Source: Escherichia phage PinkRuby. From it: a DNA stretch of 64,000 nt. The DNA lies in the sequence record PP925839.1, one strand, 5' to 3'. Position numbers and translations under genes: made by a program. Within the stretch, counting starts at the first letter, position 1; every line of letters begins with the position of its first letter. Below, in pieces: positions 51,958 to 54,526 of this stretch. The notes below the pieces were generated by a model that had not been told where the DNA came from, did not search any database, and was given only the letters and a program-made list of their open reading frames with translations.

Positions 51958-52971
51958 TCATTTATAATAACTTCGGTGGTTTTCAAGATAGACCTTCTCA
52001 AGGAAGTCATCCCAGAAACCCATGTCTACTTTTTGCTGCATACCGTTCTTAGAAGCTTCAGTAGATGCTGCTTCTACTTGATCGACCACATCTTCCAAAA
52101 ACTCTTGAACCGTTTTAAATGGATGTTTACCCAACTTCACGTCGAGAATAAATGGAGCATCTTTGAGTGGATAAACCAAGTCACCAGTTTTGTAAATTTC
52201 CAATAGTTGGAGTCCACCACGGCAAGCATGACTCAGAGCTTTCCAGTCAATGCCCTCATTCGCTTCAGCCTTACGAGCACGTTCACCGTATTCGGCATCA
52301 AGTTTATTCAAAGACTGCTTAAGCTCAATAAGAGAAAGTGTTGTCTGATATTTACGACCCAACACAGTGTAGAACGTTTGTGGACCGGTTTTCTCATGAT
52401 TATGGAATACCCATTCACAGAATTCGTTTTCTGGAAGACGATGCTTAATATCTTCAACTTTAGTGCGACGCTGCTTAATGGAACCGTCTTCTTGGTAATC
52501 AACCCATTGCTCGGGGATTTGATTAACTACTTTCAATACATCACGTAATGCAGCCAAACGAGAACCCTTGACACCGTATTTAGAAGCTTGCTTGCGGACA
52601 TATCCTAAATATGATTTCATGTTAGTCGTATAAAAACGAGAACGGTTGTCTTGAATAAACTTCCACACATCAGGCAAATCAGATTTAACCACTAGTTCAG
52701 GTGGAGTGTGAAGCATATCTAATGCTACAGTTTCACCATCTGCTGCTAATTTAAAGAAATATTTAAGACTGTATAGTTCATGGTCAATATCATCTTTAGT
52801 GTTTTTAGATGATGTGTTGTTAGTATTTTTACTCATGTGCTCTTTAACATTTCCAATAAGAATATCGCGAGCAGGAGGAACAAAGATTTCTTTAAAATCT
52901 ACATCAGATTCTGGAGTAGAAGTTCCATAAAGATGACTACCAAAATAGCTTTTCATTACTGTTTTCATCAT
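51958..52971 (-). CDS. Pol-beta-superfamily nucleotidyltransferase, function unknown
   Basis: 337 aa; FGSHLYGTSTPESDVDF (hG[GS]-x10-DhD) near N-terminus; downstream acidic residues DDIDHE / ALDMLH. Confidence 0.6.
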   Translation of the reverse strand: MMKTVMKSYFGSHLYGTSTPESDVDFKEIFVPPARDILIGNVKEHMSKNTNNTSSKNTKDDIDHELYSLKYFFKLAADGETVALDMLHTPPELVVKSDLPDVWKFIQDNRSRFYTTNMKSYLGYVRKQASKYGVKGSRLAALRDVLKVVNQIPEQWVDYQEDGSIKQRRTKVEDIKHRLPENEFCEWVFHNHEKTGPQTFYTVLGRKYQTTLSLIELKQSLNKLDAEYGERARKAEANEGIDWKALSHACRGGLQLLEIYKTGDLVYPLKDAPFILDVKLGKHPFKTVQEFLEDVVDQVEAASTEASKNGMQQKVDMGFWDDFLEKVYLENHRSYYK

Positions 52972-53429
52972 TCAGCCTTATATTCAATAACAGGACATAC
53001 TTTAGCTTTACGAGCTTTTAAAAATTCAACGATAATCGATTTCTTGGGTTGAATAGGAGGTAAACCTTTATTTTTCCTATCAATATTTTCTACGTGTAAA
53101 GCATAATCCTTTTTCCATTTATAATCTTTATATTTTTCACGCAAATGTGCAGGAATAACAAATGAACCGATAATAAGTAAAACAACCAAAAGCGCAAGTA
53201 TAAATGCTGATGGAAGAAGAGTCCATAAACTACCGAAAATAAGCCAACGTTGTAGGCTTTCTGCACAAATAATTGTTAGCCCTACGAGTATAGCACATCC
53301 AAAAATAGAAACGAAAAATGTAGGAATAACAACAGACCAAAAATATGCACACAGTGTCTTAGGTCGTTGCCATTCATCGTTAAACAATTTGAATAATTTA
53401 TAGTGCCAAGAGTTTTCATTAATAATCAT
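52968..53429 (-). CDS. membrane protein (2-3 TM) upstream of the nucleotidyltransferase
   Basis: 153 aa; hydrophobic segments, basic C-terminal tail. Confidence 0.55.
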   Translation of the reverse strand: MIINENSWHYKLFKLFNDEWQRPKTLCAYFWSVVIPTFFVSIFGCAILVGLTIICAESLQRWLIFGSLWTLLPSAFILALLVVLLIIGSFVIPAHLREKYKDYKWKKDYALHVENIDRKNKGLPPIQPKKSIIVEFLKARKAKVCPVIEYKAE

Positions 53430-53431
53430 AA

Positions 53432-53953
53432 TTATCCTTTCATTGAAGGCGTAACAGTTGTTAAATACTTAATCATAGCTTCAGCTTCTGATTTTGATAA
53501 TGAAATTTCTCCATTGTTTTGACGAATAGAAATAAAATCCGGATGACGGTCACCACCAGCTTTTAAAACACACATATAAGTATCAACTTCATCTTCAATA
53601 TTTGAAATGATTGAAGCAGTTCCGCATGAATGCGGTTTTTGATAAATCAATGCAGCTTTTCTTCCGCCATTTGACTGTTCATAAACTTTTAATACATCAA
53701 ACAAATCACTTCTTTTATCAATAGCTAAAATGTTATTTTCATCTTCAATGTTAAATCCTTCGGATACTTCATAAAGTGTCACCCATAAATCGCCAATATC
53801 AATAACAGCGTTCACTTTTCCATGACTTTTAAGAGCATGACAAATTTTCTTGATTTCGTCATAACTCATTTTAATAATATCATCTCCTTGACTAAGGAAG
53901 ATGTCATTTTTAAATTCAACACGAATTAAACCACTTTCACTTGAAATAAACAT
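53432..53953 (-). CDS. hypothetical protein (paralog pair, member 1)
   Basis: 173 aa; GFNIEDEN and C-terminal IKYLTTVTPSM similar to member 2. Confidence 0.5.
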   Translation of the reverse strand: MFISSESGLIRVEFKNDIFLSQGDDIIKMSYDEIKKICHALKSHGKVNAVIDIGDLWVTLYEVSEGFNIEDENNILAIDKRSDLFDVLKVYEQSNGGRKAALIYQKPHSCGTASIISNIEDEVDTYMCVLKAGGDRHPDFISIRQNNGEISLSKSEAEAMIKYLTTVTPSMKG

Positions 53954-53959
53954 ATTTCC

Positions 53960-54526
53960 TCACTTTGAAACCATAGTTGGAATGACAGAATCAAGATAAG
54001 TCTTTAGCGCAATAGCTTCGTCTTTGGTAAATGTAACAATATGTGATCGAGAATCATCAATTTGACGAATAGTTAAGACATCTCCATCTTCATAACATTT
54101 TGATACATTTAAAACAGTTTCATCATTCTGATCGCACTGATCGCAAGCGTTAGTAATAATAGCATTGCAATTTTTAAGCCATTTTAAACTATGTTTTCTT
54201 TCATTAGAATAATAAAAATATTTAATGTAAGTTATAAAATTATCCCAATTATTAATTGATAAGCATATTGACTCGCTTTCAATGTTAAATCCTGGGCATA
54301 AAGAATAGAAATGAATTTTATGCTCATCATTAATGCTTACAATTTTATCAGTGTAAGGTTTTTCAATTTGGGTTAAATGAATAATTTCGCTAGGCGTAAA
54401 ATATAGCATATCGTCTTCTTGCGTCAAACGATACATATTATTTACTTTTTCTATAGCCAATTCACCAAAAAGTGAACTAACTTCTAATACTAATCGTTTC
54501 ATATTGATTCTCTTCGACTCACTCAT
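53960..54526 (-). CDS. hypothetical protein (paralog pair, member 2)
   Basis: 188 aa; GFNIESES and LKTYLDSVIPTM. Confidence 0.5.
   Translation of the reverse strand: MSESKRINMKRLVLEVSSLFGELAIEKVNNMYRLTQEDDMLYFTPSEIIHLTQIEKPYTDKIVSINDEHKIHFYSLCPGFNIESESICLSINNWDNFITYIKYFYYSNERKHSLKWLKNCNAIITNACDQCDQNDETVLNVSKCYEDGDVLTIRQIDDSRSHIVTFTKDEAIALKTYLDSVIPTMVSK

Follow-up and report, generated by a model that had tools for sequence, protein, structure and literature searches.

The nrdC.11 nucleotidyltransferase gene of Escherichia phage PinkRuby and its early-gene neighbours

The gene block and its nucleotidyltransferase

The subject here is a block of early genes in Escherichia phage PinkRuby (sequence record PP925839.1), and in particular the gene at its distal end, which encodes a nucleotidyltransferase of 337 amino acids (aa). 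The stretch of DNA analysed is 64,000 nucleotides long; it is called the window below, and all positions are counted from its first letter. An earlier note, made from the sequence alone, had singled out four co-oriented open reading frames (ORFs) of 337, 153, 173 and 188 aa at 51958-54526. All four are present on the minus strand at those coordinates. What the note overlooked is a 34-aa gene, the mobD.2 ortholog, which lies between the promoter and the 188-aa gene. The complete block is a T-even early gene set in the order mobD.2, mobD.1, second y05I paralog, 153-aa membrane protein gene and nrdC.11, and it is located in a variable genome region flanked by two composite terminator/promoter units. 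Its genes and signals are as follows.

51958-52971, minus strand: nrdC.11 ortholog, RlaP-family (PF10127) Pol-beta nucleotidyltransferase, 337 aa
52968-53429, minus strand: predicted membrane protein with 2-3 transmembrane helices and no T4 counterpart, 153 aa
53432-53953, minus strand: second paralog of the y05I/MobD.1 family, with no T4 ortholog, 173 aa
53960-54526, minus strand: MobD.1 ortholog (UniProt-style name y05I), 188 aa
54529-54633, minus strand: mobD.2 ortholog, 34 aa (phrog_3515, E 6.5e-22), with an AAGGAG ribosome-binding site upstream
54690-54662, minus strand: putative early-type sigma-70 promoter, TTTACA-17-TATAGT with an upstream TG, 10/12 consensus match
51930-51956, minus strand: putative intrinsic terminator with an 8-bp G+C-rich stem (GGGAGCC-UUCG-GGCUCCC), hairpin at 51956-51937 and a U7 tail
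55474-55536, minus strand: putative upstream terminator at 55536-55519 (after rI.-1) and early-type promoter at about 55502-55474
51905-51877, minus strand: putative early-type promoter just 3' of the nrdC.11 terminator

All genes of convincing length in the region are on the minus strand; the plus-strand ORFs are short and lie inside those genes. Ribosome-binding sites of the AGGA/GAGG type precede four of the five genes, the exception being the enzyme gene. Its start overlaps the stop of the 153-aa gene as ATGA (4 bases), and in other annotations it begins at the second ATG, giving 336 aa. Upstream of the block are the genes for thymidine kinase (tk), rI and rI.-1, followed by small mobD.x-type genes. 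Downstream there is a 66-aa gene and then one encoding a 322-aa AAA-type ATPase, the nrdC.10 ortholog. The 3.5-kb stretch as a whole has matches in 695 phage records, almost all from T4-like enterobacterial phages, with a top identity of 96.7%.

The 337-aa protein is almost certainly the ortholog of T4 NrdC.11 and a Pol-beta nucleotidyltransferase of the RlaP family. It has 98% amino acid identity with T4 NrdC.11 (NP_049709) over 336 residues. Against Pfam RlaP (PF10127) it scores 44.1 bits, the gathering cut-off being 23 (E 2.6e-11), in an alignment that takes in residues 7-135 only (profile positions 23-142 of 249). PF10127 is also found in 120 of 120 close homologs among the matches listed, and PHROGs assigns the protein to phrog_388, nucleotidyltransferase (E 9e-137). 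A HMMER scan of 1.84 billion representative proteins returned 3423 relatives at E <= 0.001, mostly 310-350 aa long and matched from end to end.

The call of a Pol-beta fold had originally been made from a GS...DxD signature. That motif, FGSHLYGTSTPESDVDF, is present in the protein, is not spurious by profile search and is kept across two alignments. Among 139 diverse homologs G11, S12, Y132, H248, R251 and P268 are invariant, and D23, D25, D61, D63, D85, K131 and K244 are at least 90% conserved. In another alignment, of 75 sequences, the G, the S, D23, D25 and D63 do not vary. The Pol-beta catalytic set is thereby complete: a G[GS] turn, the DxD and a third acidic residue, D63, which is placed on strand 62-68 of the AlphaFold (AF2) model. 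The model itself (pLDDT 95, pTM 0.85) is two-lobed. An N-terminal alpha/beta domain is followed by a beta-rich insert at about 155-209 and by helices at 214-336, the last of which is long (317-336). Its best structural neighbours are nucleotidyltransferases, and the nearest solved fold is HalB of the Hailong system (PDB 9dbh). Above-threshold Pfam score, conserved catalytic acidic residues and the neighbours of the pLDDT-95 model all bear out the original call.

The same searches bear on which nucleotidyltransferases the protein resembles. None of cGAS, CD-NTase, OAS and the CCA-adding enzymes is among the structural neighbours of the model, and neither a profile match nor a structural neighbour places the protein in the PolyA_pol family or the CCA-enzyme class. 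A comparison with PDB chains, using both the single sequence and a 139-sequence profile, gave nothing meaningful, and no solved RlaP structure was matched by sequence.

Both the gene (T4 nrdC.11) and the family (RlaP) are already known. The earlier note had taken a nucleotidyltransferase at this T4 position to be uncharted, yet the RefSeq record of T4 (NC_000866) gives the product of nrdC.11 as 'nucleotidyltransferase' and a recent preprint names it as an RlaP (see below). The note had also allowed that the locus might prove to be a conserved T4 gene with a characterised, unrelated function. It is a conserved T4 gene, but experimental characterisation of the T4 enzyme was not found: a literature search returned no experimental study of NrdC.11 itself.

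Public records matching 51500-55000 contain some misnomers. The nrdC.11 ortholog is called 'thioredoxin' in many GenBank records, and in RefSeq mobD.1-type and mobD.4-type genes are called 'molybdopterin-guanine dinucleotide biosynthesis protein MobD'. These names appear to be errors inherited from T4 gene names and not to come from similarity.

Transcription signals and the extent of the block

The genes had been described as a transcription unit bounded by an early promoter and a strong hairpin terminator. Both signals stand, but a closed upstream end does not. At the downstream end, the 41-nt stretch with the nrdC.11 terminator folds at -17.1 kcal/mol (z -3.7), none of 200 shuffles folds as well, and the annotation of phage KAW1E185 has a terminator at this site. 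At the upstream end there is a further promoter at about 55502-55474, and no terminator-like site was found on the coding strand between 55519 and 51956. Therefore, the unit is probably nested in a longer transcript starting near 55500. In other words, it probably makes up the distal portion of a block that extends from about 55500 to 51937 and includes an internal promoter.

The longer transcript would contain a second set of tandem paralogs. Three genes at 54694-55293 on the minus strand encode proteins of 57, 64 and 79 aa that all match Pfam DUF7438 and are orthologs of T4 MobD.2a, MobD.3 and MobD.4.

The two ends of the block have something in common. A repeat scan of the region found a single repeat, the exact 18-nt segment TGGTACTATACAACTATC (minus strand), at 51868-51885 and 55465-55482. 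In both places it spans the -10 region and the start site of an early-type promoter that comes directly after a hairpin terminator. Composites of a terminator and then an early promoter, called PeSL cassettes, bound variable or shuffled gene modules in T4-like phages (PMC4122927). The likeness to PeSL cassettes (PMC4122927, PMC2839356) is that at both ends of the block a hairpin terminator is followed by an early-type promoter within about 30-50 bases. The units here are PeSL-like in layout and in sharing the 18-nt stretch, a comparison made with the published description of PeSL.

One other hairpin was seen nearby. It has a 12-bp stem, TTGATAGGACTA...TAGTCCTATCAG, lacks a T-run and is located at 51597-51628, just 5' of the nrdC.10 ribosome-binding site, and it could serve in RNA processing or in the control of translation. 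An Rfam search of 50000-57000 at E <= 1 gave nothing close to any gathering score.

Neighbouring genes, gene order and the comparison with T4

The 173- and 188-aa proteins had been flagged as tandem paralogs, and they are true paralogs. They share 30% identity (E 2e-13) and both match both y05I Pfam domains, T4_y05I_N and T4_y05I_C (PF24449 and PF24448), for which the cut-offs are 24.9 and 27 bits. The 188-aa protein scores 136.8 and 84.3 bits; the 173-aa protein scores 116.2 bits (E 1e-33) and 80.2 bits (E 1e-22). The family is small, with 59 clusters among 5.8 billion proteins, and its named members come nearly all from T4-like phages. A literature search on mobD.1 and y05I found no functional study, and the y05I profile gave noise only against the PDB.

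One clue to what the y05I proteins do comes from the predicted structure, a low-confidence model (mean pLDDT 63, C-domain 64-83) that contains repeated units of four strands and a helix. These beta-beta-beta-beta-alpha repeats resemble those of the PUR-alpha, PC4 (Sub1) and Whirly binders, a resemblance drawn from the low-confidence model and unaccompanied by sequence similarity. Tentatively, then, the y05I proteins would be small proteins with PUR/PC4/Whirly-like repeats that probably bind single-stranded nucleic acid. The modelled fold of the repeat unit probably also accounts for the Pfam label 'putative transcription factor'. Comparison of the N- and C-domains by hhalign gave a probability of 38%, which is too weak for an internal duplication to be claimed.

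The 153-aa protein had been described as having 2-3 transmembrane helices, and hydropathy agrees: two long hydrophobic stretches, at about residues 25-60 and 62-98, would accommodate that number. It belongs to phrog_944, 'membrane protein' (E 2e-51). The gene is present in 931 phage records, about 426 of them at 80% amino acid identity or more. The family forms 50 clusters among 5.8 billion proteins, none with a Pfam domain, and the named ones are mostly phage records. For the protein itself there was no match in PADLOC and no Pfam match above the curated cut-off, and the family profile gave only hydrophobic noise against PDB sequences (E >= 0.4), with neither HalA nor any other solved protein among the hits. 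In the family alignment the hydrophobic core is variable and the soluble ends contain invariant S7, H9, C27, Y29, K143 and C145. Four of these, H9, C27, K143 and C145, would fit a metal or disulfide site between the termini.

Do these genes form a module with the enzyme? Gene order was surveyed in 80 viral loci with relatives of the enzyme (39-99% identity) and in the window, making 81 loci, with the ORFs searched by iterated profiles. In 44 of the 81 the enzyme gene has that of the membrane protein upstream of it, and the other 37 lack the membrane protein; a y05I-type gene is present in 37. Below about 50% enzyme identity both are almost absent, an exception being one locus (L067, 45%) with the membrane protein. 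Where the enzyme is at least 76% identical the membrane gene mostly abuts it, as in the window. At 64-70% identity the usual order is a y05I gene with the C-domain only (about 75 aa), the membrane gene, 0.4-1.8 kb of other genes and then the enzyme. Annotated records of Gaprivervirus, Gelderlandvirus and one Klebsiella phage give the same picture. In another locus (L009) the enzyme is 96% identical and all mobD.x genes are missing.

The enzyme is thus present without the membrane gene in 37 of 81 loci and in T4, and therefore its linkage to that gene is no tighter than conserved gene order; the tight pair is the y05I C-domain gene with the membrane gene. The upstream genes look like co-transcribed neighbours and not obligate partners of the enzyme, and what had been called a module looks like synteny. 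As for the 153-aa protein, it is predicted to be an inner-membrane protein whose tightest conserved neighbour is the y05I C-domain gene and not the enzyme.

Comparison with T4 gives a second view of the same genes. The proteins correspond as follows.

337 aa: T4 NrdC.11, 98% identity
322 aa: T4 NrdC.10, 99% identity
188 aa: T4 MobD.1, 83% identity
34 aa: T4 MobD.2, 91% identity
173 aa: T4 MobD.1, as a paralog only, 25% identity
153 aa: no T4 counterpart

As in the window, T4 nrdC.11 is located between mobD.x genes and nrdC.10 in the same orientation. The difference lies directly upstream of nrdC.11, where T4 has the HNH homing endonuclease gene mobD and the window has the 153-aa membrane gene after the second y05I paralog. 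DNA homology with T4 is interrupted at 52973-53934, which is exactly where T4 has mobD. However, T4 retains the beginning of the 173-aa gene directly ahead of mobD, namely its ribosome-binding site and its opening five codons (MFISS). Because this remnant of the 173-aa gene is present in T4, the arrangement in the window is the older one and mobD replaced two genes. Judging from this comparison, mobD apparently displaced both the second paralog and the membrane gene from T4, and it may use the translation signals of the genes it replaced. The remnant (53934-53953 in the window, 9209-9290 in the T4 locus, L001) appears to open an ORF of about 22 codons, the stop of which would overlap the annotated mobD start as ATGA.

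The two genes downstream of nrdC.11 were also followed. The 66-aa gene at 51638-51838 (minus strand; phrog_6200) lies between nrdC.11 and nrdC.10 and has its own putative early-type promoter, the one at 51905-51877. Besides the window it was detected in one of the 80 fetched viral loci (L007). It has no T4 counterpart, the T4 gap in the DNA alignment being 13 bases. The nrdC.10 ortholog at 50612-51580 (minus strand) encodes a P-loop ATPase of the AAA type, which matches AAA_14, STAND NTPase and clamp-loader profiles only weakly. The gene is found 3' of the nucleotidyltransferase in 37 of the 81 loci, and some RefSeq records of the region give a 'helicase loader' product.

What NrdC.11 may do

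Repair of tRNA as a response to host anticodon nucleases is known classically from T-even phages, whose Pnkp and RNA ligases are encoded at other genome sites. This is relevant to nrdC.11 through its family. A preprint of December 2025 describes two RlaP enzymes of Pseudomonas, PfRlaP and PaRlaP, which are encoded between rtcB and rtcA (PMC12776372). These enzymes label RNA and not DNA or E. coli proteins. They add one or two nucleoside monophosphates (NMP) to an RNA 3'-OH, preferring Mn2+ and showing little preference among nucleoside triphosphates (NTPs). In total RNA they label rRNA-sized and tRNA-sized species, and in a nicked-tRNA mimic the broken end is favoured over a free strand. When a tRNA lacked one anticodon-loop nucleotide before ligation, RlaP partly restored its aminoacylation. 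In the authors' proposal, RlaP acts against ribotoxins that cut and then take out a nucleotide, RloC being one example. In the crystal structure of PfRlaP an N-terminal nucleotidyltransferase domain is joined to a C-terminal helical domain, with the final helix packed back on the N-domain. T4 NrdC.11 is listed as a PF10127 member in cluster 5, the Pseudomonas enzymes being in cluster 1a (all PMC12776372).

NrdC.11 resembles these enzymes in passing the Pfam threshold, in having the three conserved catalytic aspartates and apparently, to judge from the model, in an architecture of an N-terminal nucleotidyltransferase and a C-terminal helical domain. By analogy with the two Pseudomonas enzymes, NrdC.11 would add one or two untemplated nucleotides to damaged RNA 3'-OH ends. 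A nucleotide removed from a tRNA end by a host anticodon nuclease such as RloC might then be rebuilt by NrdC.11, after which the phage Pnkp and RNA ligase would reseal a working tRNA. This would be counter-defence by RNA repair and not by signalling. The reading favoured here, towards which the balance tips slightly, is that NrdC.11 extends damaged RNA 3' ends by one or two untemplated nucleotides before they are resealed. The suggestion that the locus serves counter-defence is thus plausible, by way of RNA-end repair and not of nucleotide signalling (PMC12776372). Whatever its role, viable T4 mutants that lost nrdC.11 through mobD.3 have been recovered, and therefore nrdC.11 is dispensable (PMC9825161).

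Some distant homologs have neighbours that fit such a role. On one metagenomic viral contig (L086, 5962-9179) the gene of a 41%-identical enzyme directly precedes those of an RNA ligase (PF09414) and then a PNKP (HAD_PNKP and AAA_33), a trio that looks like a compact three-gene RNA repair operon. At another locus (L154) a PNKP phosphatase gene is directly upstream of the enzyme, and in four distinct loci (L082, L125/L127, L135 and L142) there is an ATP-dependent ligase within about 320 bases downstream. These neighbourhoods lend modest support to a role in nucleic-acid end repair. Overall, the neighbours of distant homologs are a mixed set of phage early genes. A search for relatives of the L086 enzyme returned two loci only, and a scan re-ranked with L086 first gave 80 loci with few further ligase or PNKP neighbours. 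One distant homolog, traced by its exact sequence, lies on a 1.8-kb contig that gave no information.

Several observations weigh against the repair reading. Ligase or PNKP adjacency was seen in about 6 of about 140 distinct viral loci, and most of the ligases are of the DNA-ligase type. Among the genes up to about 2 kb to each side of the block, none encodes a ligase or PNKP. The activity is known from the Pseudomonas enzymes only, which are in cluster 1a where NrdC.11 is in cluster 5, and nrdC.11 is outside any rtcB/rtcA operon. In addition, the C-terminal half of NrdC.11, including the insert at about 155-209, is unmatched by the Pfam model; given this and the lack of a sequence match to an RlaP structure in the PDB, its substrate choice could differ. 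Finally, the ATGA overlap and the position of the membrane gene 0-1.8 kb upstream across several Tevenvirinae genera leave some room for a functional link between that gene and the enzyme.

Other readings start from the same enzyme fold. The nearest to RNA repair is that NrdC.11 tails RNA 3' ends for another purpose, for example those of host or phage transcripts or of phage tRNA precursors, and so alters their stability or processing. This is a possible but lesser contender. The low NTP specificity of RlaP and its labelling of both rRNA- and tRNA-sized species would suit it (PMC12776372), as would the absence of an adjacent RNA ligase in T-even phages and the placement of the gene in a region of the early, host-takeover type. 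However, the preference of RlaP for the nicked-tRNA mimic over the free strand (PMC12776372) and the recurrent, though infrequent, ligase and PNKP adjacency in the subfamily both point back to repair. Some nucleotidyltransferases act on quite different substrates: MNT antitoxins AMPylate HEPN toxins, and kanamycin nucleotidyltransferase modifies a small molecule. That NrdC.11 likewise nucleotidylates a protein or small molecule rather than RNA is unlikely. NCBIfam gave sub-threshold noise only, with MntA at 13.2 bits against a cut-off of 60, Pfam NTP_transf_2 reached 13.6 bits against a cut-off of 21, and a Pfam scan found no HEPN gene in the locus. Furthermore, the RlaP enzymes labelled RNA and not E. 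coli proteins or DNA (PMC12776372), and homologs of the same subfamily adjoin RNA ligase and PNKP genes.

What if the enzyme and the membrane protein do work together? Hailong offers one model, in which HalB, a protein of about 217 aa, makes DNA oligomers and HalA is its membrane channel partner. On this analogy NrdC.11 would make or extend short oligonucleotides sensed by the membrane protein, perhaps with the help of y05I binders, as a phage-borne exclusion module; or it would replenish the oligo-dA decoy of a host Hailong system so that the channel stays shut. In favour are the ATGA shared by the membrane and enzyme genes, the upstream position of the membrane gene in several genera, the likeness of the y05I model to proteins that bind single-stranded DNA or RNA, and HalB as the nearest solved fold. 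Yet HalB and NrdC.11 have no detectable sequence relationship, the 153-aa protein has no HalA match by its family profile and is dispensable in T4, and the proteins of the locus have no PADLOC match. Moreover, the enzyme occurs without a membrane protein in T4 and in 37 related loci, and the two RlaPs studied in Pseudomonas leave DNA unextended and add no more than one or two nucleotides (PMC12776372). The oligonucleotide-sensing idea, which apart from the fold failed each test run here, is therefore very improbable, and the composite claim, that enzyme, membrane protein and y05I proteins make up an oligonucleotide-controlled membrane module akin to Hailong or that the enzyme replenishes a host decoy, would be a shade less probable still. 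If true, either would represent a novel type of counter-defence or exclusion system in phages. Least probable of all, to the point of being nearly dismissed, is the proposal in the earlier note of a CBASS-like pair, in which a cyclase of the CD-NTase type would make a cyclic nucleotide that switches on the membrane effector next to it. What speaks for it is the shared Pol-beta GS...DxD motif and the adjoining small transmembrane protein, and nothing else; the likeness of NrdC.11 to the CD-NTases of CBASS, to cGAS and to OAS goes no further than the superfamily catalytic motif. A PADLOC search (2023 version) of six proteins, the four flagged and those of the two downstream genes, gave no match at E <= 1 to CBASS or any other model, and the enzyme matched none of the Pfam SMODS, Mab-21 and OAS families at E <= 0.1. 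It exceeds the RlaP threshold instead. The proposal is contradicted by these profile searches and by the fold searches, and its membrane partner is not obligate, being missing in T4 and in 37 of the 81 loci.

The gene block of PinkRuby is ordinary T-even content and opens no new category. What the survey brought out is a small, phage-restricted pair, the y05I C-domain gene followed by the membrane gene. The comparison with T4 shows cleanly how a homing endonuclease gene has taken the place of two resident genes. T4 NrdC.11 belongs to a family for which the addition of nucleotides to damaged RNA ends was recently demonstrated with two bacterial members. If the repair role proposed for it is true, these phages would have, in addition to Pnkp and RNA ligase, a third step of repair.

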